DNA of 64,000 nucleotides from the NCBI GenBank assembly GCA_018902845.1, contig JAHIPV010000001.1:12124-76123 (forward strand), read 5' to 3'. Position 1 is the stretch's first letter. Each line of letters starts with the position of its first letter. The DNA comes from Patescibacteria group bacterium (GTDB taxonomy: Bacteria > Patescibacteriota > Microgenomatia > UBA12405). The position numbers and the translations under genes are program-made. The notes under the pieces are model-generated. The model was given only the letters and a program-made list of their open reading frames with translations, was not told the origin of the DNA and ran no database searches. Positions 9,041-64,000 of this stretch are shown one piece after another.

Positions 9041-9874
9041 ATGCTTTCTCTAAATCAACTCTTAAACCAATATAAACAAGAAAAAAAAGCCATATCTGCT
9101 TTTAACATCGATTGTTTTGAAATTTATCAAGCAATCGAAGAAGTTGTTGCCGAAACAAATCTTCCCTGCATAGTCCAACTGTCTCCCAATCAGGATCAAT
9201 TTATCCAAGCCGAACGCCTTTTTTTACTTGTCAAAAAAGCCAACATCGAAGGTTTGCCTATTTATCTTAATATGGATCACGGTAAAGACCCGGCTAGATT
9301 GGAAAAATTAGCCAAGCTTGGTTTTGATATGATTCACTTTGATGGTTCAATTTTTGATTATGACAAAAATTTAGATCTTGCCAAAACCTTAATAGATAAA
9401 ATTAAAAGTTTGTCTTTAAACACAATCGTTGAAGTCGAATTTAATAGGATAAAAGCCATAGATAATTCAACTTCTCAAGATATATTTACCAAACCTGATC
9501 AGGCCAAAGATTTTATTTTAAAATCAAAGGCCAATCTTTTGGCAGTTTCCATTGGCAATCTTCATGGTGTAAATATAAATCGACCGGAACAGCTAGATAT
9601 TTCTCTTTTATCAAAAATTGCCACCAATTTTCCAACAAATTCTTTTTTTACTCTTCATGGCGGTTCCGGCATTCCCCAAGATCAAATTAAACAAGCCATA
9701 AACTTAGGGGTTGTAAAAGTAAACATCAATACCGATCTTCGGCTTAAATTTAGAGACTCACTTCGCAATTCCATAAACAACACTAACTCCGAAAAAATTT
9801 ATGAATACATGACTCCAGTAATAAACGATCTTAAAGAAATCATTAAGGAAAAATTAATACAACTGTCATCGTGA
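9041..9874 (+). CDS. fba: Class II fructose-bisphosphate aldolase family protein
   Basis: LNMDHGKD, IHFDGS, GNLHG and TLHGGSGIP motifs of class II (metal-dependent) FBA/tagatose-bisphosphate aldolases. Confidence 0.8.
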   Translation: MLSLNQLLNQYKQEKKAISAFNIDCFEIYQAIEEVVAETNLPCIVQLSPNQDQFIQAERLFLLVKKANIEGLPIYLNMDHGKDPARLEKLAKLGFDMIHFDGSIFDYDKNLDLAKTLIDKIKSLSLNTIVEVEFNRIKAIDNSTSQDIFTKPDQAKDFILKSKANLLAVSIGNLHGVNINRPEQLDISLLSKIATNFPTNSFFTLHGGSGIPQDQIKQAINLGVVKVNINTDLRLKFRDSLRNSINNTNSEKIYEYMTPVINDLKEIIKEKLIQLSS

Positions 9875-9985
9875 GCATAGCATGGCGATCTAATCGGGAA
9901 ACAGCTGTCATTGCGAGGAAATCACGTTTAAATTTCTTAATTTATTACGTGACGACGTGGCAATCCCGTCGGAATCGAAAACTAT
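9863..9985. repeat. GC-rich palindromic element (family A), intergenic; supplies the fba stop codon
   Basis: ctgtcatcgtgagca...ggcgatctaatcggg and ctgtcattgcgaggaa...cgtgacgacgtggcaatcccgtcgg. Same core as the elements at 17245, 57280 and 28930. Confidence 0.7.
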
Positions 9986-10025
9986 ATTATTAATTTATAT
10001 TTTAGATTTGTGATTTAATTACATT

Positions 10026-11330: not shown

Positions 11331-12044
11331 ATGCTTCTCACCAAAGAAAAAATCAATCAAAAAAAGGGAATAAAAGCCGAACAGACGGATCTTGTCGAAA
11401 CTATTTCAAAAGTCGATAAAACCAGCAAAAACCGTCGTTTTGTTATCATCGCTCTTTTAGTTACCATTGGCTTGTCCGCCATTTTTGCAATTTATGACCT
11501 AGTTAAAAAAACAACCCAAAACGGTAAATATACTGATTTTTTGTCAAAAATTTCCCTCTCTAAACCTCAAACCGATATACCAACAAAAGATATCTCAACA
11601 CCAAACATTGACATATCTAGCCTTATTGAAGAAAAAATTATCAATCATCAGGGTGTTTGGTCTTTTTACATCAAATATTATTCCTTCGCCTCGCCACAGC
11701 CTTCAGCGTCGGCGGGTTCTGATTCGGAAAAAATTATTTACACCAGAAACGAATCTGTTTTTTTCTCTAAAAACAATCCAAGCGAAATTTTAAAATCTCT
11801 AAAAGACCCAGATGATAAACAGGCAAAAATATTTACAAAAAACTTACCGGACGGTTTAGAAATCTATGAAAAAAATCAATCAACAGAAAATTCAATCGAA
11901 TCGCATCTTCTTATCATTCTTCCAAACAATAAACAAATCTTTATTCTTATTAAGACTACCGAAGTTAAAGACAATTCTCAGCTCCCATCCCTTATATCTC
12001 AACTCGTATCTGATATCTACTGGTCCCTCCTTCAATCAGACTAA
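11331..12044 (+). CDS. Hypothetical membrane-anchored protein
   Basis: 237-aa ORF with a single N-terminal TM (FVIIALLVTIGLSAIFAIY). No family recognised. Confidence 0.4.
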   Translation: MLLTKEKINQKKGIKAEQTDLVETISKVDKTSKNRRFVIIALLVTIGLSAIFAIYDLVKKTTQNGKYTDFLSKISLSKPQTDIPTKDISTPNIDISSLIEEKIINHQGVWSFYIKYYSFASPQPSASAGSDSEKIIYTRNESVFFSKNNPSEILKSLKDPDDKQAKIFTKNLPDGLEIYEKNQSTENSIESHLLIILPNNKQIFILIKTTEVKDNSQLPSLISQLVSDIYWSLLQSD

Positions 12045-14284
12045 TTTATTGTTGGTGTCGGGGTTGTTTTGGGCAAACATCTGACTCCATTCTCTGTTCC
12101 CTTAACAAAATAACCTTCTTTTCCACAAACCGTTGTCTTAACTATTCCCTCGGGCATTTGCCACTTCTCTTCTTCACGATTTTCTAGTATTTCCGTCATT
12201 ATTCTATTCCAAATCGGTGTTGCTCCCGAAATTCCCGAAGCTACCCAGCTCATCGGGCTACCATCGTTATTGCCTACCCAGCTGGCTACTAGCACTGACG
12301 GTGTCCATCCTATACACCAATTGTCTTTTAAATTATTAGTTGTACCGGTTTTTACCGCCACAGTCCTTTCCGGAATTTTTAACTTGGAATTAAAACCAAA
12401 AATAGGAGCCCTGGCCGTATCGTCACTCAAGGCTTCATTTATCAAAAAAGCTAATTCACTGGAAACAACCCTATTTTTGTCCGTCTCCTTTTCGTAAATT
12501 CTTTCGCCTAAATAATTTTCAACTCTTAAGATGGGATTAACTTCATTTTTTTTTCCTTCATTGGCAAAAATGCTATACGCCTCAGCCAGTTCAGTCATTT
12601 TTACTTCTCCCGCTCCCAGTGCCAAAGACAATCCAAATCTACTTCTATCTTTCCAGCTAGTGATCCCCATTTCTTCGGCCAAATCTATCATATCCATTAC
12701 TCCGTTTTTTTCTAGTAATTTTACCGACGGAATATTTAAAGACGAAGCTAGGGCGATTTTTAAAGTAACAGTTCCCATGTATTTCCCGTTGTAATTTTGT
12801 GGAGAATAGGGATCTTGTCCGGCAATTTGGTAAGTGATACGGTCATCGTCTATCAGTGAAGATAGTGTCCATCCTTTTTTCAAAGCTAAAAGGTAATTAA
12901 TCGGCTTAATTGAAGACCCCGGTTGTCTCAATGCCACTGTTACGTTGAATTTTCCGTCAACATCGTTCGTATAATAATCTTTTGATCCCACCATTGACAA
13001 TATATCTCCGTTTTTTGTGTCTATGATTAATACTGCTCCGTTGCTGATTTTCAATTTTAAGACTTTTGCTATTTCCTCTTTCACAATTTTTTCTGCCATT
13101 AATTGTTTTTCTCTGTCTAAGCTTGTAACAATTCTAAGTCCTGATTTTTCAATATTTTCAAAATTTAGTTTTTCTTCTAGATACTTTTTGACATAAAAAA
13201 CAAAATGTGGAAATTCTATATTTTTAATATTATTTTTTATTTTTATTTCTTCTCCTGACACCTTTTTTGCTATCTCTTCATTTATAAAACCGGCCTTCAC
13301 CATTTCATCTAACACTCTTTTTTGTCTTAACAATGCAAATTCCGGATTTTTTCCATAAGGAGAATAAGAGCTTGGCGCCGCTGGTAATCCTGCCAAAAAA
13401 GCTGCTTCAGCCAAATTTATTTCCCAAACGTTCTTATCAAAATATTTAAGAGATGCTTCTTGCACTCCGTAACTTTCTCCTCCATAAGCCACTTGGTTAA
13501 AATATCGTTCTAGTATTTCATTTTTTGGCAGTTTCCATTCCAAAGCTATCGCCAAAACTGCTTCTTTCAATTTTCTCTTCCATGTTTTTTCACTACCCAA
13601 AAATACATTTTTAACTACCTGTTGGGTTATGGTAGATCCTCCTCTTGGTGGGAACTGGTCTTTTCTTAAGTTGTAAAGTATCGCCTGAAAAACCCCTTTT
13701 AAAGAAAATCCCGAATGGCGGTAAAAATCTTTGTCTTCAATAGAAATTGTTGCCCATACTAAAGTTTGTGGAATTTTAGACAGGGGAATCCAAGTTCTAT
13801 TTTCATCTTCATAAAATTTGTAAAGTAAACTCCCGTCTCTATCCACTATTTTGCTTGACATTGGTGGGGGAGTATAAATTTTTTCAATATCGGGTAAATC
13901 AATCAAAATTTCTTTATAGAATATATAAATTCCAAAACTAAAAACTCCCATCAACAGCGACCCCAGTAACCAAACAATCCACATCCAATTTGCTTTTTTC
14001 TTTGCCTCGCCATTAATCCTTTTCTTTAATCTTTTCTCTTTGCCTCGCCAAAGTTTCCAACGACGGCGGGTTTTCCTCTTCTTCATTTTTCTTTTAAAAC
14101 AATTTTCCCAATTATTAAATTTCTTTATTCGTTTACTTATCTTGTTTTTCTTTGTTTTTTTATAATTCTTAATTCTTAACTCGTAATTCTTAATTAATAT
14201 CATTAACAGTCCAACAATAAGTTTTATTATCCTGTAAATCGGCCTTCCCATCCTTATCAAAAAACTTCTTATCCAAACAAACAT
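12041..14284 (-). CDS. Class A penicillin-binding protein (PBP1A-type transglycosylase/transpeptidase)
   Basis: GT51 motifs EDKDFYRHSGF, GGSTITQQ and RKLKEA; transpeptidase SSIKP...SLN...KTGT. Start uncertain: a basic N-terminal extension suggests an alternative start near 14086. Confidence 0.8.
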   Translation of the reverse strand: MFVWIRSFLIRMGRPIYRIIKLIVGLLMILIKNYELRIKNYKKTKKNKISKRIKKFNNWENCFKRKMKKRKTRRRWKLWRGKEKRLKKRINGEAKKKANWMWIVWLLGSLLMGVFSFGIYIFYKEILIDLPDIEKIYTPPPMSSKIVDRDGSLLYKFYEDENRTWIPLSKIPQTLVWATISIEDKDFYRHSGFSLKGVFQAILYNLRKDQFPPRGGSTITQQVVKNVFLGSEKTWKRKLKEAVLAIALEWKLPKNEILERYFNQVAYGGESYGVQEASLKYFDKNVWEINLAEAAFLAGLPAAPSSYSPYGKNPEFALLRQKRVLDEMVKAGFINEEIAKKVSGEEIKIKNNIKNIEFPHFVFYVKKYLEEKLNFENIEKSGLRIVTSLDREKQLMAEKIVKEEIAKVLKLKISNGAVLIIDTKNGDILSMVGSKDYYTNDVDGKFNVTVALRQPGSSIKPINYLLALKKGWTLSSLIDDDRITYQIAGQDPYSPQNYNGKYMGTVTLKIALASSLNIPSVKLLEKNGVMDMIDLAEEMGITSWKDRSRFGLSLALGAGEVKMTELAEAYSIFANEGKKNEVNPILRVENYLGERIYEKETDKNRVVSSELAFLINEALSDDTARAPIFGFNSKLKIPERTVAVKTGTTNNLKDNWCIGWTPSVLVASWVGNNDGSPMSWVASGISGATPIWNRIMTEILENREEEKWQMPEGIVKTTVCGKEGYFVKGTENGVRCLPKTTPTPTIN

Positions 14285-14333
14285 CTATCTTATTTTAACT
14301 CACTCACACTACCCTTTAAATACCCAAAAGCAA

Positions 14334-16439
14334 TCAATCTGTTTTTTCTACAACTGGACAATCTAAGCAAATAAAATAGCCTCCCGCATCTTCTATTACT
14401 GTTCTTTCTTGCCATTCTGCGTTGGGAATATCTTCTCCCTCTTTAACAATTTGACCGGTATCTTTATTAACCACCACTGTTCTTTTTGTAGGCATACTTT
14501 TTGTAGGCAAAAATTCTTGTTTAAAATATTCATATCTCGAATCACATCCTTCTTCCGGAATCAGTCCTCCGGTTAAGTTACAGATATGCATACCAACTAT
14601 ACTAGCGGGCATTACCGGCTTTTTAACCAACTTATCTTCCAGTATTTTTGTCATAACATCATTCCAAATCGGTGAAGCTCCAGTTATTCCGGATACCACC
14701 CATCCCATTTTTGAATTATCATTATTTCCTACCCAGCTAGATACTACATAATCAGCAGTAAAACCTATTGTCCAGTTATCTCTCATATCGTTAGTTGTAC
14801 CCGTTTTCACTGCCACTTCCGGATGGTCTTTTATGTTCAACAATGATCCTCTACCAAATACCATTGATCTGGCGCCATCATCAGATAAGATATGTTGAAT
14901 CAAAAAAGCCGTTTCTCTAGACAAAACTCTTTCTCCTGGTATATATTCATACTCGTCAATCACCTCTCCGTTCCTATCCCTTACTTCCAAGACATAATTT
15001 AAGTCTTGCTTGATTCCCATGTTAGCAAAAACACCAAAAGCGGTATTCATATCTATCATCTGCACTTCTCCTCCTCCTAAAGTTAACGACAAACCATAAT
15101 TAGAGGCATCTTTAAAGGTACTGATTCCCATGCTTCTAGCAAAATCTACAAAAGTTTCTACTCCGTTTATTTCTAGCATTTTTACTGCCGGAATATTTAA
15201 TGAATTTCCCAAACAATTTCTCAAAGATTGTATTCCATAATAAGACCAACCGTAATTAGTCGGGCAATAATCTTTTTGGTTTATCATCTTAAAACAAGTC
15301 TCTTTATCACCAAAAACCGATGCCGCCGTTACATTTCCAAGTTCCAATCCCAAAGCATAATTCAGTGGTTTGATCGAGGAACCGGGTTGTCTTAATGCTG
15401 TTGTCACATTAAACTGCCCATTAATATCATTGGCAAAATAATCTTTTGACCCCACCATTGCCAGCACTTGTCCGGTTTTAGCCTCTGTCACCAACACTGC
15501 CCCGTTCGTTACATCGTATTTTTCGATTTTAGCAATTTCAGAGGCTACACTTGTTTGTACATAATCCTGCAATTCCATATCTAAGGTAGTTGTCACTTTC
15601 AAGCCTCCTTCCTGGATTTTTTTTAGTCCATATTTTTCAGTCAATTTTTCTCGCACCAAAAGTACAAAATGAGGAGCCAATATTCCTTTTTTCGAGACGA
15701 AGTATTTAAGTTCCCCTGTTTTGGCATTTTCCATTTCTTCTTTGCTTATAAATCCTTCTTCGTTCATTCTTTGCAAAACCAATTCTTGTCTTTTTTTTGC
15801 CGCTTCAGGATGAGCAAAAGGGGAGTATTGTGTCGGTGATGCCGGCAATCCGGCAATCAAAGCTGACTCGGCTAAATTTAATTCTGATACGTTTTTGTCA
15901 AAAATACCTTTTGCCGCCGCTTGTGCTCCCCAAAGAGTTCCGCCATATGGAGTTTGGTTGAAATACATTTCAAGAATTTGATTTTTCGAATACAAAATCT
16001 CCACCATCCCGGTTAACAGCGCCTCTTTGATTTTTCGCTTTATTGTTCTTTCTGGAGTTAGTAAGGCATTTTTTACTAATTGCTGGGTTATGGTCGATCC
16101 CCCTTGCAATCTTTTTTTAAAAATCGTTCTATATAATCCTCTGGCAATTCCTTTCAGATCGAATCCAAAATGTTTGTAAAATTTAGTGTCCTCAATCGCC
16201 AGAGTTGCGTTTTTTAAATCTTTTGGTATCTGGTCCAAATCTACCGGAACCCTATTCTTGTCAGAGAATATCTCATACAAAAGTTTTCCTTTTCTGTCAA
16301 AAATTAGGGATGACTCAGGGTATTCGTGTGTAGATAATTTTCTCGGACTTGGTAAATCTCTAAGCAAAAAAACAACCAACAAAAAAACCAACCCCAATAC
16401 TCCCAAATATATCCACCTCTTTTTTTTACTCTTCTTCAT
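14334..16439 (-). CDS. Class A penicillin-binding protein (PBP1A-type), second tandem copy
   Basis: EDTKFYKHFGF, GGSTITQQ, SSIKP, SLN and KTGTT motifs. N-terminal TM anchor. Confidence 0.85.
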   Translation of the reverse strand: MKKSKKKRWIYLGVLGLVFLLVVFLLRDLPSPRKLSTHEYPESSLIFDRKGKLLYEIFSDKNRVPVDLDQIPKDLKNATLAIEDTKFYKHFGFDLKGIARGLYRTIFKKRLQGGSTITQQLVKNALLTPERTIKRKIKEALLTGMVEILYSKNQILEMYFNQTPYGGTLWGAQAAAKGIFDKNVSELNLAESALIAGLPASPTQYSPFAHPEAAKKRQELVLQRMNEEGFISKEEMENAKTGELKYFVSKKGILAPHFVLLVREKLTEKYGLKKIQEGGLKVTTTLDMELQDYVQTSVASEIAKIEKYDVTNGAVLVTEAKTGQVLAMVGSKDYFANDINGQFNVTTALRQPGSSIKPLNYALGLELGNVTAASVFGDKETCFKMINQKDYCPTNYGWSYYGIQSLRNCLGNSLNIPAVKMLEINGVETFVDFARSMGISTFKDASNYGLSLTLGGGEVQMIDMNTAFGVFANMGIKQDLNYVLEVRDRNGEVIDEYEYIPGERVLSRETAFLIQHILSDDGARSMVFGRGSLLNIKDHPEVAVKTGTTNDMRDNWTIGFTADYVVSSWVGNNDNSKMGWVVSGITGASPIWNDVMTKILEDKLVKKPVMPASIVGMHICNLTGGLIPEEGCDSRYEYFKQEFLPTKSMPTKRTVVVNKDTGQIVKEGEDIPNAEWQERTVIEDAGGYFICLDCPVVEKTD

Positions 16440-17101: not shown

Positions 17102-17764
17102 TCACAATTTTCCACTTTCCCTTTTTCCATGAAAAAAAGCATATCCTAATCCCACTTTTTCCCCTTTCATTTTTGGCTTCATATATAAATATTGCCCCCC
17201 GAAAGCCACCAGGTTCACCAACCACCAGAACAAATTAAACCGTTTGTCATCCCGAGCACGGTCGAGGGATCCAGTTGGAAATGTAAAAAGATCTAATTTA
17301 TGCCTCCATCGGGATTGCCACGTCACTTCGTTCCTCGCAATGACGGTTTGGTCTACCCATCTTTTATTTTCCCCCACAAACTTTTCATAAATATTTTCTT
17401 TATTTAAAACTGCTTTCAAAAACATTAAATCACTCGCACTTATTTTTGTCTGCTTAAACTTTGGTAGTTCCAAACTACTTTCATCCAGCCACATATTAAA
17501 ACAAAACTCATCTTTTCTTTCTTTTTTTCCAACTCTTCGGTGGGGGATTTTCTTAAACCTTATATAAAAGTTCAAAAACAATCTAGTCATCCACAGCCTA
17601 TTTTTCTTCGTTATTACTAATATGTCTATATCATCATTTTTCTTTGCCCCGCCGGCTCCAACCGACCCGCTCACACCCACAAACAAAATATTTTTAAATC
17701 CCAACAAATGCTTTTTTACTAGATTCTCTGTCTTTTTTAGTTTATTTTTACTATATTTATTCAC
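17102..17764 (-). CDS. Nucleotidyltransferase-domain protein (Pol-beta superfamily) with an in-frame repeat insertion
   Basis: GVSGSVGAGGAKKNDDIDILVI minimal nucleotidyltransferase motif. Segment ...DLFTFPTGSLDRARDDKR... is encoded by the GC-rich element at 17245-17347. Confidence 0.5.
   Translation of the reverse strand: MNKYSKNKLKKTENLVKKHLLGFKNILFVGVSGSVGAGGAKKNDDIDILVITKKNRLWMTRLFLNFYIRFKKIPHRRVGKKERKDEFCFNMWLDESSLELPKFKQTKISASDLMFLKAVLNKENIYEKFVGENKRWVDQTVIARNEVTWQSRWRHKLDLFTFPTGSLDRARDDKRFNLFWWLVNLVAFGGQYLYMKPKMKGEKVGLGYAFFHGKRESGKL
17245..17347. repeat. GC-rich palindromic element (family A) inside a CDS, in-frame
   Basis: tgtcatcccgagcacggtcgagggatccagttggaaatgtaaaaag joined to the reverse complement of tgtcattgcgaggaacgaagtgacgtggcaatcccgatgg. 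Ends are inverted copies of TGTCATYSCGAG. Confidence 0.75.
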
Positions 17765-33532: not shown

Positions 33533-33565
<33 letters not shown>

Positions 33566-35471: not shown

Positions 35472-35583
35472 CAAGGTATCCGTACTGGAAGGTGCGGATG
35501 GATCACCTCCTTTGAGGTTAACTCAAAATCCCTCTGATACTAACAATTTTGACTAATAGCACATTGATTGATAACAAAAAATT

Positions 35584-44057: not shown

Positions 44058-44132
44058 AAAAAGAGGACCTGTCCTGTAGTTAAAAACGAAAAGAGGACCT
44101 GTCCTCCGTAGCTCCAGTTCACTGGAGCGAAG
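44058..44132 (-). terminator. Tandem intrinsic terminators for the minus-strand transcript
   Basis: Two copies of AAAGAGGACCTGTCCT. On the minus strand each forms a GAGGA-CAGG-TCCTC hairpin followed by a T-run; a CTCCAGTGAACTGGAG hairpin lies just upstream. Confidence 0.45.
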
Positions 44133-44464: not shown

Positions 44465-44633
44465 AGCAAGAGCTAGGACATTTCTTAAAGCACTGCCGAA
44501 TGTATTGGCATGTTTTTTTTGATTTTGTTTTACGGCTGTTAATCAAAGCCGGCTTGCAGTTTTTTAAAGTGCATTTTCTGTCGATGCAATTACATCTCCT
44601 TGAGCACAAATTATACCAAAAATTTCGCCAAAG

Positions 44634-47795: not shown

Positions 47796-47879
47796 AGTGG
47801 AGGAATCTCTGAACTTGTTTCAGAAATCCTGCTACCGCAGAATACCTCAGACAAGCTGAGAGATCTCTCGGCTTTGCTC
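47770..47879. repeat. GC-rich palindromic element (family A), intergenic
   Basis: tttgtcattccgaccaaagtggaggaatctc...gagagatctctcggctttgctcgagatgacatt with inverted termini TGTCAT/ATGACA. Confidence 0.7.
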
Positions 47880-47890
47880 GAGATGACATT

Positions 47891-51634: not shown

Positions 51635-51636
51635 AA

Positions 51637-53509: not shown

Positions 53510-54082
53510 ATGCCTGTTCAAAAAAACAAACAATCTTTTTTCTTTCTTTTTCTAATTGCCCTTTTTTTTATTCTTTCTTCTATTTATGTCTATTCCTATC
53601 TTTCTTCAAAAATATCAAAAGAAATGGTTGTTGATAACAGTTCAAGTTTTTATATCCCAACTGTCACCAACATTCCGGAGCCATCCATCTTTCCGTCTAT
53701 TACGCCAGCCGGTATAACCGGACCATATCTAAAAACTTTTTATTCAGATATTGACAATTTTGAAATCACATATTTTTCTACTCGCCAATTATATGAAGAC
53801 AAAGATGGCACCTCTAACCGCTATGTTTTTGCCAAAACCGGAGGTACAAACTTTGTAGTTCATGTTGGTGAAAGTTGGTCATGGATTCATCCGGACAGGC
53901 AATTTACCAATGATTTAAAAATTGCCGGCTTTGACACTTTCAGATACGATACAACTTCTCAGACAATTTTTGATTTACAAAAAGACGATACAAAATATAC
54001 TCTTCAATGCATTCACAATGGTATTGAGTCTCTCAAATCCGAATGCCTCGATTTTGTCCAAAGCTTCAAGCTAACAAACTAA
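53510..54082 (+). CDS. Hypothetical membrane-anchored protein
   Basis: N-terminal TM (FFFLFLIALFFILSSIYVYSYL) and ~150-aa extracytoplasmic domain. No family recognised. Confidence 0.4.
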   Translation: MPVQKNKQSFFFLFLIALFFILSSIYVYSYLSSKISKEMVVDNSSSFYIPTVTNIPEPSIFPSITPAGITGPYLKTFYSDIDNFEITYFSTRQLYEDKDGTSNRYVFAKTGGTNFVVHVGESWSWIHPDRQFTNDLKIAGFDTFRYDTTSQTIFDLQKDDTKYTLQCIHNGIESLKSECLDFVQSFKLTN

Positions 54083-55301
54083 ACCCAATCTCTCTTTTTC
54101 TTTTTCCTTTATACTCAAACTCAACTTTCACAATTCTTGCTTTTTTCTTTAATTTTCTAAAATTTTTATCTCCCATATTCTCCGGCCATTCAACACAGGC
54201 AATCACGCCGGTTTTAAATAAATCCAAAAATCCAATCTCATCAAACTCAAATTCCTTACTTAATCTATACAAATCCATATGCAAAAATCTTTTATAGTTT
54301 TGCTTGTCCTCCATAGCTTTAGCGAAGGAGGAAATTTTAATATTTGAATTTTGAAGTTGTTTTGAATTTGAGATTTTAGATTTTAGATTTAATTTGTATT
54401 CATTACAAATAGTAAAAGTAGGGGACACAATCCTTTTTTTTATCCCCAAAATTTTTCCAATCGCTCTGCTAAAAACTGTTTTTCCTGCTCCTAGCTCTCC
54501 ACTCAAACAAAACACAACCAGCCGACTGTCATTCCGACCGAATCCGCCAGCTGGCAAAAAAGGATCACCCTGAGCCCCCCCAGCGTCATCCTGAGCGTAG
54601 CGAAGGATCCCCCCGGACAACATCTTCTTAAAAATAAACCTCGCAATTCTCCCTGTTTCTTTTTCTGAATTCGATATAAATTTTTTGGCCGAGCCAATTA
54701 CCATGTCTCCTTTTCTCAAAACTTTCACTTCCGCTTCGGTTGCATCAATCACCGTTGACGGTTTATTCCTTGGTAATCTTCCTGCATCCGCTACTAGATC
54801 AACCATATTTTTTTTCTTTTTTGACAAAATATTCAAAAACGATTTAACCGAATAATGCGGTGATCTCCCCGAAAGATTAGCCGATGTTGCCGTAATTGGT
54901 TTTTTTAAAATATTTACTAAATCCAAAATATATTTACTCTCGGGGATTCTTATTCCCAAAGTCCCATCTTCCGCCTCTATTCCCTTTGCAACTTTTCGTT
55001 TTCCTTTATTCACCACCGTAAAAGGCCCGGGTAATAAATTCTTATAAATTCTTTTAGCCATTTCTGATAAATCCACATATTCTTCGGCCATTTTTTGGCT
55101 AGTTACTGCTATCGAAATTGCCTTTCCTGTCCATCTATTCTTAAAAGCCAGTAATTTATCTACGGCTTTTTGGTTACAAGCATCCACGGCCAAAATATAA
55201 ACAGTATCCGAAGGAAACAGCACCAATCCTCCGTTTTTTATCACTCTAATCGTTTCTTTCAAAACACTTTTATGGTTTTTTGCTATATCCAAAATTTTCA
55301 C
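54066..55301 (-). CDS. Fused L-threonylcarbamoyladenylate synthase (TsaC/YrdC domain) - TsaE (YjeE P-loop ATPase) protein, with two in-frame repeat insertions
   Basis: N-terminal YrdC domain (NGGLVLFPSDTVYILAVDACNQKAVDKL...GIRIP...ATSANLSG). C-terminal TsaE domain (LSGELGAGKTVFSRAIGK...SPTFTI). The linker ...RYAQDDAGGAQGDPFLPAGGFGRNDSRL... is encoded by element 54536-54618, and ...NSNIKISSFAKAMEDKQ... by the AT-tailed element 54300-54400. Confidence 0.7.
   Translation of the reverse strand: MKILDIAKNHKSVLKETIRVIKNGGLVLFPSDTVYILAVDACNQKAVDKLLAFKNRWTGKAISIAVTSQKMAEEYVDLSEMAKRIYKNLLPGPFTVVNKGKRKVAKGIEAEDGTLGIRIPESKYILDLVNILKKPITATSANLSGRSPHYSVKSFLNILSKKKKNMVDLVADAGRLPRNKPSTVIDATEAEVKVLRKGDMVIGSAKKFISNSEKETGRIARFIFKKMLSGGILRYAQDDAGGAQGDPFLPAGGFGRNDSRLVVFCLSGELGAGKTVFSRAIGKILGIKKRIVSPTFTICNEYKLNLKSKISNSKQLQNSNIKISSFAKAMEDKQNYKRFLHMDLYRLSKEFEFDEIGFLDLFKTGVIACVEWPENMGDKNFRKLKKKARIVKVEFEYKGKRKREIGFSLLA
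54300..54400. repeat. Family B element (GCGAAGGAGG + tandem gattttagattt tail) inside tsaC-tsaE, in-frame
   Basis: gctttagcgaaggaggaaattttaatatttgaattttgaagttgttttgaatttgagattttagattttagattt. Compare 53205-53260 and the 16S V2 expansion 33395-33470. Confidence 0.6.
54536..54618. repeat. GC-rich palindromic element (family A) inside tsaC-tsaE, in-frame
   Basis: ctgtcattccgaccgaatccgccagctggc...caccctgagcccccccagcgtcatcctgagcgtagcgaaggatccccccgg. Confidence 0.75.
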
Positions 55302-55350: not shown

Positions 55351-57645
55351 ATGGACAAGCGATACGATCCCGGTTCCGAACAAAAAATTTACCGGCTTTG
55401 GGAAAAATCGGGCGCATTCACTCCCACGGTACCAAAAAACAAGGCAAGGCAAAGCCCTCCTTTTACCATAATCCTTCCCTTACCAAACGCCAGCGATCCA
55501 ATGCACATGGGTCATGCTATGTTTGTTATCCAAGATATACTTTGTCGTTGGCATCGCATGATGGGTGAGCCGGTTTTGTGGCTTCCGGGTGCAGACCATG
55601 CCGGTATCGAAACCCAATATATTTTTGAAAAAAGATTATCGGAAACAGGCAAATCCAGATTCGATTATGATAGAAAAACTCTTTATAAGCTGATTTGGGA
55701 TTATGTTGAAGAAAACCGAAAAATTAATCAGTTTCAGTTAAAGGAACTTGGTTTTTCTTTGGACTGGACTCGTTATCATTACAGTTTAGAACCAAACATT
55801 GTCAATCAAGTCTTAAAAACTTTTAGGAAACTTTACCAAGACGACTTGCTTTATAGGGCCGAAAGAATCGTTAATTATTGCACTCATTGCGGTACTGCTT
55901 TTTCCGATTTGGAAATTGACCACGTCGAAAGAGATGATTTTCTCTATTATCTTGATTACGGTCCTATAAAAATTGCCACCACTAGGCCCGAGACTATTTT
56001 TGTCGACGTAGCGGTGGCTGTCAATCCAAAAGACAAAAGATACAAAAACTTGATTGGCAAAAAAGCTATCATTCCCCTGATAAACAAAGAAATTCCCATT
56101 ATAGCCGATGATCTGGTTGAGATTGATTTTGGCACCGGTGCCCTAAAAATTACTCCGGCTCATGACTCTACCGATTTTGAAATCGGTCAAAAACACCAGC
56201 TACCAACTATTTCCTGCATAAAACTTTCGGGAAAGATGGTAAACACTATTCCTGAAATTGACGAACTCTATCCCTCCCAAGCCCGAAAAAAAACAATCGA
56301 AATGCTGGAAAAACAAGCCAAGCTAGTCAAAACCGAACCCTTGCATCACACCATTGGTATTTGTTATCGCTGTAAAAACGTTATAGAATCTTTACCGGTT
56401 CCTCAATGGTATGTAAAAACAAAACCCTTAGCCAAGCCGGCCATAGAGTCAGTCAAAAAGGGAGAAACCAAAATTTTTCCGCCAAGATTCAAAAAAACTT
56501 ATCTCGATTGGATGGAAAACATCCGAGATTGGAACATTAGCCGTCAAATTGTTTGGGGTCCACAAATTCCGGCCTATTATTGTCTTGATTGTAATCCGAC
56601 TATCCAGATCAATTTCATCGACAAAAAAGGAAAAATTATTTCCGGTTTATATCAGGATCTAAAAAATAAATATCAATTCCAGCAAATCAAAAAAGGCCTA
56701 CAAACCCTAAATGCTCCTATTACGGCGGATTATTTCTTAAAAAATTCAAAAAACATTTGTCCCAAATGCAAGGTTAGTCACGTTTTGCAAGAAACCGACA
56801 CCTTTGACACTTGGTTTTTATCCGGACAATGGCCCCTAACTACCTTAGGATTCAACGTCGACAATCCGGCCAACAGCTCGCCAGATTTTGACTATTTTTA
56901 CCCCACCAGTGTTTTAGACACTCTTTGGGATATTTTATTTTTTTGGGTTGGCAGAATGATGATTTTTGGTTTTTATTTAGCAAAAAAAACACCTTTCAAA
57001 ACCGTTCACCTGCACGCCAAAGTAACAGATGAAAAAGGTCAAAAAATGAGCAAGTCAAAAGGCAATGTTATTAATCCCAGTAGTACGGTTCAAAAATACG
57101 GCGCCGATGCTTTGCGTTTGGCCTTAGTTTATGGCACGGCTCCAGCTAGCAATATCTCTCTTTCAGACAAAAAAATCGAAGCTATGAGGAATTTTACTAA
57201 CAAAATTTGGAATGCTTCCCGTTTTGTCAAAATCATTATCAACCGCTTCAAAGAGCAAAACCCAAACTTAGAAATCAATCTGTCATTGCGAGGACTCCGA
57301 CTTCACGTCGGAGGACGTGGCAATCCCGATGATGATGAAATCCTGTCTAATCTAAACCAAATCATCAAATCAACTACTGCCAATCTAGAAAAATACCGTT
57401 TTGGTCAAGCCTCAGAAGACTTATATCAATTTTTTTGGCATCAATTTTGTGATGTTTACATAGAAAAAATCAAAGACAGAAAAGAAGATGTAATTCCAGT
57501 TTTGATGCATGTCCTAATAACCAGTCTCAAACTTCTTCATCCCTTTATTCCTTTTGTCACCGAAACTATTTATCAGGATTTCAAACAAGAATTTAGTTTA
57601 AAAAAGGATTTATTAATCACTTCTCTGTGGCCAAAAGCAAAATGA
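55351..57645 (+). CDS. valS: Valine--tRNA ligase (compact form) with an in-frame repeat insertion
   Basis: HMGHA (HIGH), PGADHAGIETQ and KMSKSKGNVI motifs. Segment EINLSLRGLRLHVGGRGNPDDDEIL is encoded by element 57280-57327. Confidence 0.8.
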   Translation: MDKRYDPGSEQKIYRLWEKSGAFTPTVPKNKARQSPPFTIILPLPNASDPMHMGHAMFVIQDILCRWHRMMGEPVLWLPGADHAGIETQYIFEKRLSETGKSRFDYDRKTLYKLIWDYVEENRKINQFQLKELGFSLDWTRYHYSLEPNIVNQVLKTFRKLYQDDLLYRAERIVNYCTHCGTAFSDLEIDHVERDDFLYYLDYGPIKIATTRPETIFVDVAVAVNPKDKRYKNLIGKKAIIPLINKEIPIIADDLVEIDFGTGALKITPAHDSTDFEIGQKHQLPTISCIKLSGKMVNTIPEIDELYPSQARKKTIEMLEKQAKLVKTEPLHHTIGICYRCKNVIESLPVPQWYVKTKPLAKPAIESVKKGETKIFPPRFKKTYLDWMENIRDWNISRQIVWGPQIPAYYCLDCNPTIQINFIDKKGKIISGLYQDLKNKYQFQQIKKGLQTLNAPITADYFLKNSKNICPKCKVSHVLQETDTFDTWFLSGQWPLTTLGFNVDNPANSSPDFDYFYPTSVLDTLWDILFFWVGRMMIFGFYLAKKTPFKTVHLHAKVTDEKGQKMSKSKGNVINPSSTVQKYGADALRLALVYGTAPASNISLSDKKIEAMRNFTNKIWNASRFVKIIINRFKEQNPNLEINLSLRGLRLHVGGRGNPDDDEILSNLNQIIKSTTANLEKYRFGQASEDLYQFFWHQFCDVYIEKIKDRKEDVIPVLMHVLITSLKLLHPFIPFVTETIYQDFKQEFSLKKDLLITSLWPKAK
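57280..57327. repeat. GC-rich palindromic element (family A) inside valS, in-frame
   Basis: tgtcattgcgaggactccgacttcacgtcggaggacgtggcaatcccg. Near-identical core to 9905-9975 and 17300-17345. Confidence 0.8.
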
Positions 57646-59124: not shown

Positions 59125-59136
59125 AAGTTCCTATTC

Positions 59137-59527: not shown

Positions 59528-59572
59528 CGTCATCCTGAGCCTGTCGAAGGATCCCCTAGGAATTGAAAAACC
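59528..59572. repeat. GC-rich palindromic element (family A), intergenic upstream of trpS
   Basis: cgtcatcctgagcctgtcgaaggatcccctaggaattgaaaaacc. Compare 62207-62246 and 54580-54618. Confidence 0.75.
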
Positions 59573-59680: not shown

Positions 59681-60715
59681 ATGAACAAATTAAACAATAA
59701 AAAAAAATCATCTATCTCGAATAAACCTCGTATTCTCACTGGCGACAGGCCTACCGGCCCCATGCACTTAGGCCATTACGTTGGCTCACTAAAAAATCGC
59801 GTCAAGTTACAAGATACTTACGACTGTTTTTTTATCATTGCTGATCTTCACATGTTAACCACTACTCTTAGTAAAGAAAAAACGTCAAAAATCAACCAGT
59901 TAAGCAGGGGATTAGTTCTTGATTATTTATCTGTTGGTATTGATCCGGAAAAATGTGTAATTTATCAGCAAAGCAAAGTTCCAGAAGTAGCCTATCTTTC
60001 CCTTCTTTTTTCTATGTTAGTCACAGTTCCCCGTTGTCAGCGTGTCCCCACTCTAAAAGATGTTATGCATGATTTGAAAATCAAAAAACCATCTCTTGGC
60101 CTTTTAACTTATCCGGTTTTGCAAGCCGCCGATATTCTTATGGTCAAAGGTAATCTGGTTCCGGTAGGCAAAGATCAAGAAAGCCATGTCGAAATCAGCA
60201 GAGAAATTGCCAAAGCTTTTAATAAAATGTATGGAGAAGTTTTTCCAGTCCCAAAAGCACTCATAGGCGATACCGGCACATTGATCGGCACCGATGGTCA
60301 AGCCAAAATGAGTAAATCAATCGGTAATTGTATTTATCTTTCCGACGATCAAGAAACTGTCAACCAAAAAGTCATGGGTATGTATACCGATCCTAACCGC
60401 ATTCACCCGACAGATCCAGGAAAGGCCATAGGCAATCCCGTTTTTATTTATCACGATGCTTTTAACACTAACAAAGGTGAAGTTGAGGATCTTAAAGATA
60501 GATACAAAAAAGGTAAAGTTGGCGATGTAGAAGTTAAGCAAAAATTAGCCAAGGCTATAAACAATTTTCTTGATCCAATCAGAAAAAAACGAGCCAAATA
60601 CGAAAGAAAAACAGATCTAATTAATCAGATTATCAAACAAGGTTCCCAAAAAGCCCGCCTGGAAGCACAACAAACCTTAAACCAAGTTCTCAAGACCATG
60701 GGAATTAAAAACTAA
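59681..60715 (+). CDS. trpS: Tryptophan--tRNA ligase
   Basis: [20 protein letters not shown] (HIGH region) and KMSKSIGN (KMSKS). ~340 aa class Ic. Confidence 0.85.
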
Positions 60716-60833: not shown

Positions 60834-61826
60834 ATGAACAAAAATAAGCAAAAATCTCAAATTATTATTTACCAAACTGATGATGGAAAAACCCGGGTTG
60901 AGGTTCGTCTTGAGCATCAAAACGTCTGGTTGACGCAAAAACTTATCGCAAAACTGTTTAAGACAACAGTGGCGAATATTAATATTCATCTTAAAAACAT
61001 TTTCAAAACAGGAGAACTTCAACAAAATTCAGTTATTAAGGATTTCTTAATAACTGCCTCGGACGGAAAAAAATACAAGACTAAGATGTACGGGATAGAA
61101 GTTATCGTAGCTATTGGCTATCGGGTTAATTCGAAGCGTGGCACACTTTTCCGCCAATGGGCAACAGATCGTTTAAAGGAATATATGGTTAAGGGATTTG
61201 CGATGGATGATGTACGTTTGAAGCAGGGCGGTCATAAATCACGCTTTTTTGAGGAATTATTGGAACGTATCCGAGATATTCGATCAAGCGAGAGAATGTT
61301 ATACCAAAAAGTGACAGATATCTATGCAACCGGTATTGACTATCACAAAAATGCTAAAGAAACAGAACTTTTTTTTAAGACGGTTCAAAATAAGATACAT
61401 TTCGCAGTCAGCGGGAAAACTGCTACAGAATTAATCACAGAGCGTGCCGATAACAAAAAACCACTGATGGGACTTACAAATTTTTCAGGTCTTCGCCCAA
61501 TTCAGCGTGATATTTACATCGCGAAAAACTACTTGAACAAAAATGAGCTGAAGATGCTCAATCGTATTGTTGATGCATATTTATCGTTTGCTGAGATTCA
61601 AGCCAAAACTGAACATGCCATGACCATGAAAGATTGGATAAATAAACTTAATGAGTATTTGACCCTTTTGGGGAAAGGTGTTCTAGAAAATGCGGGTACG
61701 GTGCGAGCAAAAGAAGCTGAAGAAAAAGCTAACAGGGAATATAAAATATATAAAAAAGAACAAAATAAGAATTATATTTCCGACTTTGATAGAGTTGCTA
61801 AAAAGTATCTACGTGCCAGTAAATAA
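60834..61826 (+). CDS. RhuM-family (virulence/prophage-associated) protein
   Basis: IIIYQTDDGKTRVEVRLEHQNVWLTQKLIAKLFKTTVANINIHLKNIF... is the characteristic RhuM N-terminal block. Confidence 0.6.
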   Translation: MNKNKQKSQIIIYQTDDGKTRVEVRLEHQNVWLTQKLIAKLFKTTVANINIHLKNIFKTGELQQNSVIKDFLITASDGKKYKTKMYGIEVIVAIGYRVNSKRGTLFRQWATDRLKEYMVKGFAMDDVRLKQGGHKSRFFEELLERIRDIRSSERMLYQKVTDIYATGIDYHKNAKETELFFKTVQNKIHFAVSGKTATELITERADNKKPLMGLTNFSGLRPIQRDIYIAKNYLNKNELKMLNRIVDAYLSFAEIQAKTEHAMTMKDWINKLNEYLTLLGKGVLENAGTVRAKEAEEKANREYKIYKKEQNKNYISDFDRVAKKYLRASK

Positions 61827-62148
61827 AATAAACCATAATTAATTAAAAAACCGATCAAAAACAAGAATTTAAAGAAAAGTTTAGTAAGGAAGTAATGAAA
61901 TCGGCGGTTGCTTTTGCTAATTCTGATGGAGGAATTATTTTAATTGGCACTACTGATAATAAAAAATATTTACTAAATAAGCACTCGTGCCAAACTCGTG
62001 CCAAAAATGCTAAAATAAATTATGAACCAATATAAAATCGGAGTTTAGGATTGCCACACTTTTCTCGCGATGACGGTGGAAATTTCCGGAGTGGATGTTT
62101 AACCCACTTTATTTTTTTGCTATATTTTTAACAAAATATTGCCTTCAT

Positions 62149-64000
62149 TCATTCCTGTTCTTCATCTCCAATCTCAATAAGTTCTCCAAAAACCCAACCT
62201 TCAACTTGCCCTGAGCCTGTCGAAGGATCAAGTTGGATTTTTACCCAGCCATCTTTTTCTTCTAAAGAAGGGAAACTTTGACCATCAGTCACCTTGGCTA
62301 AAACCTCTCCTTTCAAAGACGGCTCGCTTCTTACCACAACCCAACTTCCCTCATCGGCAGTAATCGTCGCCAGAGTTTCTCCGGCAACCGCGCCTTTGAC
62401 TTTTCCCTCTTCTTTTTCCGGAGTGTTGAAAGTATAGTAAGCATCATAAACATAGTTTTTGTTTTGGGACATGACTTCAAAATAATAAAGTTTTCCGGGT
62501 TCCAAATCTTTCAGCTCCATCCGGTGTTCCTTTACCCGTTTGTCGGATTGAATTTTTTTGCCGTATGAGGTGTTAAGACCGTAGTTAACCACTGAAGTAG
62601 CGTAGTGGTTGGTTCCCCAAACAACCATTGCTGAGGTTGAGTTAACCTCTTCTATTTTTACAAAAAGAATCTTGGTTGGTTCGTTGTCAAAGACAATGGC
62701 TATAAATGTGCTGGTGGCGATCCTTAAACGGGTGGCTAAATTCTGGGCTTCTTCCGAAGCCGGCTTGCGGATTGATTCTCTACCGGTTTGCCAGGCAGTT
62801 GCCAGCCTGGATGTTTGTTGGCTGATTGTTTTTACTCCTTCTCCAACATTAGAGGCTAAAGCCTTAACTCCGTCAGTCGTCTTGTTGATGGTATTTCCTA
62901 CTGTCCTATTAACAACCTCCGCTCCATTAGCCAGAGCTAAAAGTCCATCTCTAATTACCCCCGATGTTTTTTGGGTCAGATTAAAGTAGCCCCTGGCCAA
63001 AAACAGCTTTCGTTCTTCATTTTTTTGTTTTCTTGAGGCAAGGAACTGGTTGGTTGTTTTGCCAACCGCACCAGCCACAGCACTAACGCCATTCTTTATC
63101 TGATTGCCGACAAAAGCCAGTCCCTGGCCGATTTTTCCGGCTAAGAATTTAGCGCTATCAACTGTTTTCCACCAAAGATTGGCAATTCCGGTAAAAATTT
63201 TACCAATCGCTTCGGCAATTACGGATGGTTCTTGTAACTCTTCAGGGATAACAATACCCTGTTCTTTGATAACTTCTTCTATCTTTTCTCTGGGAATCCC
63301 TTCTTTTTCCAATTCTTCAATTACTTCTTCAACTTCAGGAATTTGAGCAATCTCTTCATAAGTTTTAATGGTTAAAGTAAAAGAAGAAGAACTACCTCCA
63401 TTACTTGCTTTATCTTTGCCGGTTAAAGTTATTCTGTAAACACCCAAAGGCAAGTCGGTTGTGGGCGTGTAGGAAAAGCTGGAATATTTATTACTGGTTT
63501 GTTTGCTGTTATCAGTGATTTTTGAACCATCACTACTCCAATAAAGTTCACTGATATTAACCGTCGCCAAAGTATGGAGGTTGTAAACTCCAAGATAATT
63601 TCTTTTTTCAAATTTAATTTCTACCTCTTTAGGTCCTGAAGCAACTTTCAAACCATCCCCTGTCAGCGAGTCGGTTGTTTTTCCATAAATAGTCGGTGTT
63701 TTATCAGTGGTAGCTAGGCTATCAGCAGAAGAAGTGTCATTTATTTGTGTTGCTTCAACGCTCGGCCCGTTTCTGTCAACAAACAAAGTTCTTGATTCTT
63801 CTTTCTCATTGCCGGCGTTATCCACCGCCTTGACTTTCCAATATCTTTTGCCCTCTTTTAATTTGCCATCATTATTTCCTGAATTGGAATCAGAACTCCA
63901 ATCGTTTGAAGATTTAGTGTAAACAGAAATATAATTGTTGGTGGTATCAGAATCACTAAAGTTTTCATAATGAATTAAATATTTACTGGTTTCATAATCG
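62149..64000 (-). CDS. Large secreted/surface protein with Ig-like/FN3-like repeats and a C-terminal SH3b domain; 5'-partial, with an in-frame repeat insertion
   Basis: Listed ORF starts with GTG at 63825, but the frame stays open to 64000 (...YWKVKAVDNAGNE..., typical of Ig-like surface repeats). C-terminal GWVKIQLDP...GWVFGELI SH3b-like. STGSGQVEG is encoded by element 62207-62246. Confidence 0.55.
   Translation of the reverse strand, partial: DYETSKYLIHYENFSDSDTTNNYISVYTKSSNDWSSDSNSGNNDGKLKEGKRYWKVKAVDNAGNEKEESRTLFVDRNGPSVEATQINDTSSADSLATTDKTPTIYGKTTDSLTGDGLKVASGPKEVEIKFEKRNYLGVYNLHTLATVNISELYWSSDGSKITDNSKQTSNKYSSFSYTPTTDLPLGVYRITLTGKDKASNGGSSSSFTLTIKTYEEIAQIPEVEEVIEELEKEGIPREKIEEVIKEQGIVIPEELQEPSVIAEAIGKIFTGIANLWWKTVDSAKFLAGKIGQGLAFVGNQIKNGVSAVAGAVGKTTNQFLASRKQKNEERKLFLARGYFNLTQKTSGVIRDGLLALANGAEVVNRTVGNTINKTTDGVKALASNVGEGVKTISQQTSRLATAWQTGRESIRKPASEEAQNLATRLRIATSTFIAIVFDNEPTKILFVKIEEVNSTSAMVVWGTNHYATSVVNYGLNTSYGKKIQSDKRVKEHRMELKDLEPGKLYYFEVMSQNKNYVYDAYYTFNTPEKEEGKVKGAVAGETLATITADEGSWVVVRSEPSLKGEVLAKVTDGQSFPSLEEKDGWVKIQLDPSTGSGQVEGWVFGELIEIGDEEQE
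62207..62246. repeat. GC-rich palindromic element (family A) inside the surface-protein gene, in-frame
   Basis: cttgccctgagcctgtcgaaggatcaagttggatttttac. Confidence 0.7.

Follow-up and report, generated by a model that had tools for sequence, protein, structure and literature searches.

Short palindromic repeats made of a tetranucleotide tag and a hairpin were split by Di Nocera, De Gregorio and Rocco (BMC Genomics 2013; PMC3733652) into the GTAG-tagged and CGTC-tagged superfamilies of repetitive extragenic palindromic (REP) sequences. This study compares with them a set of GC-rich hairpin units dispersed over a 64,000-nucleotide (nt) stretch of Patescibacteria DNA (contig JAHIPV010000001.1, assembly GCA_018902845.1; hereafter the window), several of which lie in frame within genes. 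As described in that paper, the CGTC superfamily comprises families CGTC-1 to CGTC-4 from five phyla, mainly Alphaproteobacteria, with an unpaired CGTC/TGTC tag, A-T residues almost always at stem positions one and two, fully paired stems of 8–9 bp, loops of 4–5 nt and an unpaired 3-nt tail fitting CCA. Its dimers are mostly inverted (head-to-head), head-to-tail pairs being negligible; its units are enriched downstream of open reading frames (ORFs), and their termini can provide stop codons. The elements are presented there as having no dedicated transposase, and their de novo formation is raised as a possibility. In Rickettsia conorii, CGTC-1 corresponds to RPE-6 and CGTC-4 to RPE-4, and in Neisseria CGTC-1 corresponds to dRS3. 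Intragenic in-frame copies are recorded in many genes, including those of the glycyl- and isoleucyl-tRNA synthetases, and the listed peptides include VIPAKAGI, SFPRKRES, VIAGLDPAIH and VIPWLDHGI (PMC3733652).

The window units also share features with other short repeats. Rickettsia palindromic elements (RPEs), RPE-1 to RPE-8, were reportedly described by Ogata et al. in 2000 and 2002, and to our knowledge they have no known transposase. Like them, the window units are GC-richer palindromes in an AT-rich reduced genome, in frame in many genes, essential ones included, and in presumed surface loops; RPE-1, however, measures 100–150 bp, prefers one frame and encodes a recognisable peptide domain, whereas the units here measure 25–45 nt and use any open frame. 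A comparison of the six host proteins and three insert peptides with NCBIfam gave no RPE family at E ≤ 1, the presence of RPE models in the release being unconfirmed. With GTAG REPs and REPINs, the window units have in common a tetranucleotide tag joined to a GC hairpin, dimers forming larger hairpins and a single-stranded DNA recognition model. GTAG REPs flank the gene for RAYT (TnpA-REP tyrosine transposase), which cleaves them, whereas the units here are tagged CGTC/TGTC and the annotation of the window includes neither a RAYT nor any further Y1 transposase. Bacterial miniature inverted-repeat transposable elements such as the Neisseria Correia elements are likewise short, non-autonomous repeats with inverted termini, as seen at 47781–47888; Correia elements differ in having 26-bp terminal repeats, a TA target duplication, an integration host factor (IHF) site and DDE-type logic, whereas the copies here are mostly single hairpins with no definable target duplication. 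Finally, fungal mitochondria harbour mobile GC clusters and double-hairpin elements, GC-rich palindromes that spread in an AT-rich genome and may lie in frame in protein genes and also in rRNA genes; being organellar, unrelated in sequence and without the tag-plus-tail plan, they provide an analogy only.

Tagged units in the window and the CGTC superfamily

We consider it likely that the window units are non-autonomous repeats of the CGTC/TGTC-tagged REP superfamily, several of which have been inserted in frame in genes. Direct reading of the sites gave 13 tagged hairpin units and one tagless core, occupying 9–10 loci in a window with a G+C content of 35%. The motif TGTCATCCYGAGC (two mismatches or fewer) matched eight times against 0.92 expected, with none of 100 shuffles as high, and TGTCATTGCGAGGA matched three times against 0.29 expected. 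A covariance model (R2), trained solely on copies from other phyla and run over the window with filters off, recovered six window copies with E values from 5.8e-8 to 1.2e-4. These data establish the dispersed GC-rich element family that a first-pass annotation of the window had proposed, at sites whose coordinates were correct to within a few bases. Pairwise likeness among the window copies reaches 86% at most.

Each unit comprises an unpaired (T/C)GTC tag, a hairpin stem opening with A-T and T-A, and a short C-rich tail. Immediately 5' of the stem, the tag is TGTC in ten of the 13 tagged units and CGTC in three; the stem starts AT...AT in 12 and AC...GT in one (46251), and the tail is CCC (eight units), CTC (two) or CCA (one), compared with mostly CT or CC in other phyla. 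The main subtype, here called alpha, reads GTC-AT-NNN-GA-GC-loop-GC-GA-N'N'N'-AT-C. The second, the half-element A2 of the first-pass annotation, has an ATTGC/GCAAT stem and a longer interior, with inner segments of 17–50 nt and a nested hairpin in some copies. The local tail extension CCCGTCGGAAATGTAAAA is common to both subtypes in this lineage. The units are arranged singly, as inverted dimers, as direct dimers or nested in one another; two dimers in the window are inverted (17245/17345 and 47781/47888) and three are direct (9864/9906, 28801/28927 and 54527/54584).

The window units are like the CGTC superfamily in their tag, AT-first stem, C-rich tail, occurrence singly or as dimers, position near gene ends, in-frame copies and lack of an associated transposase. 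Set against the published definition, the tag, the AT stem and the missing transposase agree fully, and the tail, the stem and loop, and the dimers agree in part. The RPE-like character noted earlier is therefore more than an analogy, since the superfamily as published includes RPE-4 and RPE-6, and the repeats that had seemed unfamiliar belong to a group already described as CGTC-tagged REPs (PMC3733652). Differences are also evident. The main subtype has two invariant G.A mismatches in a nine-position stem, a 3–5-nt loop and frequent nested hairpins, and the window units have a lineage-specific 15-nt tail extension (CGTCGGAAATGTAAAA), a Patescibacteria host and a core found in about 18 phyla among the matches listed. 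A scan of viral contigs gave no match to this tail.

The intergenic copies lie mainly at gene ends. Downstream of fba (9041–9874; host-gene identities throughout were assigned by Pfam), a degenerate TGTC-tagged alpha unit (TGTCATCGTGAGCATAGCATGGCGATCT; 9864–9891, + strand), to which R2 responds weakly (E 0.99), gives the last three codons and the TGA stop at 9872–9874, so that the stop codon of fba does fall within a repeat unit as had been claimed. It is followed in direct orientation by an intergenic TGTC-tagged unit with an ATTGC/GCAAT stem (9906–9982, + strand), an AT-rich nested segment and the tail CCCGTCGGAATCGAAAAC. A complete 108-nt inverted dimer of two alpha units with outward tags (47781–47888, assigned to neither strand; R2 E 3e-6 and 1.3e-6) occupies the spacer from the stop of a solute-binding-protein gene (47891) to the tpiA start (47774); it encloses three small hairpins and has imperfect inverted ends of about 30 nt (TGTCAT...ATGACA). 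The site had been listed at 47770: the element is real, but it is intergenic, and the TTG-started ORF that enters it is a mechanical artefact. A single alpha unit (59528–59556, + strand; R2 E 1.2e-4) lies in the divergent spacer upstream of trpS. In addition to the sites listed earlier, three related hairpins of uncertain membership were observed on the + strand, namely the GC hairpin ..CCGTAGCC TTT GGCGAAGGAGGG in tsaD (53194–53223), the TGTC-tagged TGTCCTCCATAGCTTTAGCGAAGGAGGA in the TsaE part of the tsaC-tsaE fusion (54305–54332), and a TGTC-tagged hairpin with a nested hairpin that abuts the 3' end of the transfer-messenger RNA (tmRNA) gene (44100–44138).

The copies placed exactly at gene ends, after fba (9864–9982), between the solute-binding-protein gene and tpiA (47781–47888) and at the tmRNA gene (44100–44138), raise the question of whether the hairpins are host-selected functional elements, such as 3'-end stabilisers, terminators, processing signals or gyrase-type DNA sites. 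The downstream enrichment reported for the CGTC family (PMC3733652) and the hairpin pairing kept by covariation, described below, would agree with such an origin. We nevertheless judge it unlikely, as at least seven copies lie in coding regions in either orientation, where a terminator would harm, while orthologous sites lack units or hold different cores, and copy number and position vary between sister genomes. Moreover, no Rfam family was found on the units at gathering thresholds or at E ≤ 5, and generic long-hairpin microRNA models touched long palindromes elsewhere only. Some intergenic copies may still have a host-selected regulatory role.

Structure and distribution of the tandem G.A subtype

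The alpha stem is composed of AT-NNN, two invariant tandem G.A/A.G pairs and a G-C clamp of 1–2 bp, closed by a loop of 3–5 nt that is often GNNA or GNA; two of its nine positions are therefore invariant G.A mismatches. In an alignment of 48 copies, GTC is invariant, the first stem pair is A-U in 47 and the second U-A in all 48, and GTCAT, both GA dinucleotides and the closing AT show little or no variation, while the NNN pairs vary on both sides of the stem (C-G, U-A, G-C). An unbiased covariation test was made on 8-kb loci around seed matches, with the seeds themselves left out. Among 561 GTCAY-NNN-GA anchors, 176 were closed by GA-N'N'N'-RT, against 21.7 with permuted NNN, and these represented 13 different stems. 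Alignment A1 contained 42 two-sided changes against 9.8 in shuffles (0/500 as high), and the inner G-C pair, which had not been used in selecting the sequences, covaried as well. Because stem position three covaries with the nucleotide that follows the second GA, a stem with tandem G.A/A.G pairs in its interior is favoured over an alternative bulged pairing. A hammerhead ribozyme or kink-turn was rejected on reading the sequence, which has neither a CUGAUGA core nor a 3-nt bulge.

In both DNA and RNA, tandem sheared G.A pairs in the context 5'-YGAR-3' have unusual stability, as do GNA/GNNA loops with a closing C-G pair, and nearest-neighbour tables represent this stability poorly. The alpha single strand d(GTCATCCTGAGCGTAGCGAAGGATC) is predicted to form a sheared tandem G.A hairpin. 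By standard folding, the compound elements are more stable than their shuffles: 28795–28925, around the unit at 28801–28925, gave z = −3.35, 47778–47891 gave z = −3.44 (0/200 as stable), and 57278–57330, around the valS unit, gave z = −2.07.

A pattern with 21 specified bases, GTCATCCYGAGC-N5-CGARGGATC, was searched on both strands of 596 Gb, for which about one chance match was calculated. It was found in at least 120 genome contigs representing, by record titles among the matches listed, about 18 phyla: Acidobacteriota, Bacillota, Chloroflexota, Patescibacteria, Bacteroidota, Pseudomonadota, Gemmatimonadota, Verrucomicrobiota, Cyanobacteriota, Planctomycetota, Omnitrophota, Fibrobacterota, Synergistota, Armatimonadota, Bdellovibrionota, Desulfobacterota, Actinomycetota and Dormibacterota. 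The Patescibacteria among them include Saccharimonadales, Komeilibacteria, Curtissbacteria and Gracilibacteria, and isolate genomes of Pedobacter, Dysgonomonas, Mucilaginibacter and Vineibacter carry the motif. The core is therefore pan-bacterial and not confined to one lineage, and the range of the CGTC family is extended from five phyla to about 18 among the matches listed, in addition to phage contigs. An ATTGC-stem variant gave a 36/36 match on a Methylosinus plasmid and near-matches, all intergenic, in Methylocystis, Novosphingobium, Legionella and several cyanobacteria. In other genomes, inverted pairs with outward tags predominate.

The pattern also occurs in 46 viral contigs. In one of these (IMGVR_UViG_3300028167_000210, 8560–8980), a complete inverted dimer of about 75 nt (TGTCATCCTGAGC...CTCAGAATGACA) is repeated five times in tandem with an 87-nt period and variable centres of 13–15 nt. 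Concerning orientation, all 13 of the 13 tagged or related hairpin loci of the window have the tag on the + strand regardless of the strand of the host gene, and the + strand is C-rich throughout the window. A replication-strand bias was rejected as an explanation, as solo units in other genomes are unlinked to local GC skew (52 vs 44, p 0.48).

Compared with the published families by their text and listed peptides, the tandem-G.A subtype may be uncatalogued. Among the CGTC peptides listed in PMC3733652, which derive from fully paired stems, none is of the tandem-G.A type, and they resemble only the unit at 46251. Full-text literature searches with the DNA strings and their reverse complements returned unrelated primers only, searches joining palindromic elements with Patescibacteria returned nothing relevant, and the later REP papers found address neither CGTC units nor Patescibacteria. 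We tentatively propose that the subtype GTC-AT-NNN-GA-(G-C clamp and loop)-GA-N'N'N'-AT-C could be a member of the CGTC superfamily that has not yet been described, spreads horizontally and inhabits most bacterial phyla as well as phages; its tag and tail would be cut by an enzyme acting in trans. If so, cores would be swapped at fixed sites and hairpins nested into old ones, and a few protein loops would become renewable insertion sites; the valS loop, in which relatives carry at least five different palindrome types, would be an example.

In-frame copies and turnover at orthologous sites

Six units or clusters stand in frame in genes, namely valS, the YgjP-like hydrolase gene, comF, a nucleotidyltransferase gene, the tsaC-tsaE linker and an SH3 surface-protein gene, and the ORF is open at all six; Pfam identities and frame reading confirm what had been stated for these sites. 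In the nucleotidyltransferase ORF (17102–17764, − strand), an alpha unit with tail (TGTCATCCCGAGCACGGTCGAGGGATCCAGTTGGAAATGTAAAAA; 17245–17289, + strand; R2 E 2.5e-6) is read antisense (...GSLDRARDDK...), and together with its inverted partner, a CGTC-tagged unit with an ATTGC/GCAAT stem (17302–17345, − strand), it makes up a 101-nt element (...VIARNEVTWQSRW...). In the YgjP-like ORF (28388–29245), where the Pfam domain match is broken into two parts, the first unit (28801–28925, + strand) contains two nested insertions, a GTAG-tagged REP (about 28815–28853, 39 nt) and a 33-nt hairpin (28880–28912); the former is a true GTAG unit with an 8-bp hairpin at 28820–28844 (GTAGGGGCGACCCTTGCGGTCGCCC). 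Next to it lies an alpha unit with tail (PVIPSVVEGSRRNCKS; 28927–28971, + strand), the top R2 match with 46.2 bits and E 5.8e-8. The ComF-like ORF (45739–46425) holds a TGTC-tagged unit with tail (46251–46291, + strand; LVTPPWRGPVGNVK), the stem of which, GTCACCCCGCCGTGGCGGGGTCC, is fully paired over 7 bp with a 4-nt loop, and its peptide VTPPWRGPV resembles the CGTC-1-type peptides VTPAEAGV and VIPAKAGI (PMC3733652).

In the TsaC-TsaE fusion (54066–55301, − strand), a degenerate TGTC-tagged unit (54527–54583, + strand; R2 E 0.57) and an alpha unit read antisense as ILRYAQDD (54584–54612, + strand; R2 E 2.7e-5) are located in the inter-domain linker. The valS gene (55351–57645) contains a TGTC-tagged unit of the ATTGC/GCAAT-stem type, in which a perfect 7-bp hairpin is nested (57281–57327, + strand; LSLRGLRLHVGGRGNP). 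In the surface-protein ORF (62149–63825, − strand), the tagless alpha core CCTGAGCCTGTCGAAGGATC (62210–62229, + strand) lies in the SH3_3 domain (LDPSTGSGQVEG); it has its own flanking inverted repeat, AACTTG/CAAGTT, and is identical over 20 nt to 59534–59553. The tolerance of such units in essential genes, which the first-pass annotation found striking, holds, with a precedent in the tRNA synthetases of the published CGTC families (PMC3733652).

Depending on frame and on orientation, sense or antisense, one DNA unit gives VIPSVVEGS, ILRYAQDD, SLDRARDDK or LDPSTGSGQ, so that it is the DNA and not the peptide that is conserved. An alpha unit has TGA at the tag region in two of the six frames, and no intragenic copy with an intact tag is read in these; the surface-protein copy is in a TGA-bearing frame and has lost its tag. 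In an alphaproteobacterial metagenome-assembled genome (RFOF01000004.1, 3826–4854), a homoserine-kinase-like ORF contains an in-frame alpha dimer, VIPSVVEGSNGDKDPSTRKLLAQDD, so that in-frame alpha copies are not confined to Patescibacteria. That the segments are native coding sequence, a shared protein motif with the DNA repeat as a by-product, is very improbable: the open ORF at every intragenic copy would be expected from it, but the same DNA unit gives unrelated peptides on both strands and in different frames, intergenic copies exist, the segment is absent from 76 of 80 YgjP homologues and from most ComF and nucleotidyltransferase homologues, and the inserts match neither Pfam nor NCBIfam, the YgjP segment being modelled as disordered.

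Alignment with homologues points to lineage-specific insertion, as the segments of ValRS, YgjP, ComF and the nucleotidyltransferase are absent or different there; the ComF and nucleotidyltransferase inserts are missing from most homologues. The nearest relatives of the window ValRS are Microgenomates/Shapirobacteria-type sequences. It exceeds Thermus thermophilus ValRS (1GAX) by about 15 residues, which lie where the anticodon-binding region begins and putatively include the peptide LSLRGLRLHVGGR, and the loop ranges from 39 to 58 residues among 120 homologues. The YgjP loop I132–R206, with the putative insert peptide PVIPSVVEGSR, has 73 residues in the window against 17–20 for 76 of the 80 homologues; the three nearest homologues have loops of 51, 41 and 28 residues. 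In the AlphaFold model (predicted TM score 0.77), residues 141–195 have a predicted local distance difference test score below 57 and no secondary structure, with both flanks above 93; the insert is accordingly modelled as a disordered loop.

In more distant relatives among the ValRS homologues P0002–P0120, the loop corresponding to window positions 57230–57390 holds other palindrome-type peptides, KSPLLKGDLEG, PLPQGGMSEGQGG, LPCQGELSEGLKG and PSLSREGTGVG, a pattern suggesting that unrelated GC-rich hairpins have been inserted more than once at this site. TsaD is about 38 residues (59–105) longer than the solved TsaD structures, and the excess is encoded by the GC hairpin at 53194–53223 together with an AT-rich repeat. 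In this lineage, several essential translation-related proteins (ValRS, TsaC-TsaE and probably TsaD) contain apparently disordered loops derived from repeats, and these matter for the annotation and alignment of candidate-phyla-radiation proteins.

Sister genomes with about 80% DNA identity (L001 and L180 from GCA_018818375.1, L004, L178 and L179) were compared at the orthologous sites. In four genes, the tag, and the tail where present, is kept in place while the hairpin core differs. The ygjP core is CCCGAG..CGTAGTCGAGGG in the window and TGCGAGGAGTYCNACGACGTGGCA in L178 and L179; the tsaC-tsaE linker core is CCTGAGCGTAGCGAAGG in the window and CCTGAACTCGTTTCAGG in L001, with tag and outer stem identical to those of 54584–54612; the comF core GTCACCCCGCCGTGGCGGGGTCC is replaced by GTCATTCTGGACTTGTTTCAGGATC in L180; and in valS the ATTGC/GCAAT-stem unit with its nested hairpin is matched by GTCATCCTGAACTTGTTTCAGGATCC in L001 and GTCATTCCGGACTTGATCCGGAACC in L004. 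Differences of this block-like kind are not explained by point mutation, judging from the aligned sequences. The YgjP insert increases stepwise, from one unit in L179 (253 aa) to two in L178 (263 aa) and, in the window (285 aa), two together with the nested hairpins of 39 and 33 nt. The length of either nested piece is divisible by three, and both appear as gaps against L178 and L179 in the nucleotide alignment; on this comparison, the insert grew through nested insertions. Unit copy number and position also differ among the sister genomes.

The conserved tag and tail around a different core at orthologous sites would also fit palindromes that arise and change in place, by template-switching (quasi-palindrome correction) and gene conversion, without transposition and with variable loops accumulating them. 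The same could be said of the 20-nt core identical at 59534 and 62210 between different flanks, of the valS unit closing on the host-like segment AATCCCGATGAT, and of the missing transposase, de novo formation having been raised in PMC3733652. This origin appears rather unlikely to us: it leaves unexplained how the same 26-nt sequence with an unpaired GTC tag came to stand in about 18 phyla among the matches listed and in viral contigs, as well as the discrete 39- and 33-nt nested insertions, and conversion would still require donor copies that had spread first. Beyond the repeats as such, what is new in comparison with the published families is the Patescibacteria host, the wider distribution of the tandem-G.A core, and the way in which, at fixed sites in essential genes, cores are exchanged and inserts grow by nesting.

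The window sequence recurs in four assemblies of different samples, at 99.94% (L005), 100% (L006 and L008) and 99.1% (L007) identity, and an identical contig is JAHINU010000010.1 of GCA_018895885.1, a Patescibacteria metagenome-assembled genome. The agreement between at least four samples makes artefacts of assembly or undetected frameshifts unlikely, and likewise the frameshifted-pseudogene alternative that had been named. An artefact of assembly or binning might be suspected in a metagenome-assembled genome, and identical strings across phyla can signal contamination; yet the copies differ mutually and covary, isolate genomes carry the motif, and the domains on either side of the inserts are intact and in frame. 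We give such an artefact, or hosts that are frameshifted pseudogenes, almost no credence.

Mode of spread and other features of the region

The sequences themselves show hairpins dispersed in many copies, with a conserved unpaired tag and covarying stems, missing or different in orthologues, inserted stepwise and by nesting, retained in genes only where the frame is preserved, and distributed across phyla. Based on this evidence, the reading as inserted CGTC/TGTC-tagged repeats can be put as a sequence of putative steps. Units would have entered intergenic spacers and variable protein loops or linkers as DNA; only insertions of a multiple of three in length and in a stop-free frame survive selection, and the surviving intragenic copies would be translated as 8–58 extra, probably disordered, residues. 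Units may move as single-stranded DNA hairpins, which an enzyme acting in trans, HUH/RAYT-like or of another kind, would recognise and cut at the tag; such an enzyme, or gene conversion, may also exchange cores between copies. The single-strand enzyme step is a tentative suggestion, made by analogy with RAYT acting on GTAG REPs and with TnpA of IS200/IS605 (PMC3733652).

Several observations weigh against this reading. Three of the five window dimers are direct, whereas those of the published CGTC family are mostly inverted (PMC3733652). With standard DNA parameters, folded single alpha units are no more stable than their shuffled counterparts (z −0.3 to −1.6), so that the expected hairpin potential was borne out for the compound elements and not for the single units, for which the hairpin claim rests on covariation and non-canonical G.A pairs. 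No transposase or other recurrent gene was found near the units among the called genes of the 64-kb window and its flanks, and all-against-all clustering of the ORFs of 166 loci from other organisms revealed no recurrent transposase or protein family near them. Strains that are 99–100% identical show no difference in the presence or absence of GC units, and the window copies are 86% alike at most; there is hence no sign of current movement. Finally, translation of the inserts is deduced from preserved frames.

The missing transposase agrees with the published CGTC elements, which have no dedicated one. An autonomous element between inverted units 1–1.6 kb apart was considered and rejected, as two such loci enclose ordinary genes. 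Since cores differ between sister genomes and GC units do not differ among strains, turnover is seen between species and not between strains. The spread of CGTC REPs and Rickettsia RPEs has been without a known transposase since 2000–2013, and the turnover between sister genomes, by core exchange and nested growth, bears on this question. As Patescibacteria genomes are about 1 Mb in size with few genes, the co-occurrence of genes with the units across such genomes could narrow the candidates for a mobiliser.

The window further contains 16S rRNA and tmRNA genes together with glycolytic, cell-wall and translation genes. The tmRNA gene (44131–44599, − strand) was detected by Rfam (63.5 bits) and missed by ARAGORN, and the tagged hairpin overlaps its 3' end. 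The 16S rRNA gene (33145–34772) is followed by a LAGLIDADG_3 homing-endonuclease ORF (34813–35403) and then a stretch resembling the 16S 3' end (about 35480–35510), which suggests an intron-type interruption. An AT-rich repeat family of 'GATTT' type occurs in 16S (33414–33470), tsaD (53225–53269, within the gene at 52321–53472, − strand) and the TsaE part of tsaC-tsaE (54333–54400), and both copies in protein genes adjoin a GC hairpin. The tsaE copy contains a 39-nt in-frame indel (54338–54376) between the window and the strain of 99% identity (L007).

Just past the right end of the window, the surface-protein gene is followed in the L005 assembly (its positions 20285–21793) by genes for a reverse transcriptase (RVT_1, 408 aa) and for a small GIY-YIG protein, with no visible connection to the repeats. 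The same assembly holds one more copy of an 11-nt tandem unit, ATTATACAACA, at 59382 in the spacer upstream of trpS. Within trpS, 42 of the 64 mismatches between the window and L007 are concentrated in 200 nt (60347–60547), which looks like a recombination tract. At 12041–16439, two neighbouring penicillin-binding-protein paralogues of 747 and 701 aa share stretches of 71–75% DNA identity at a constant offset of 2455–2461 nt, an arrangement that indicates a probable tandem duplication.

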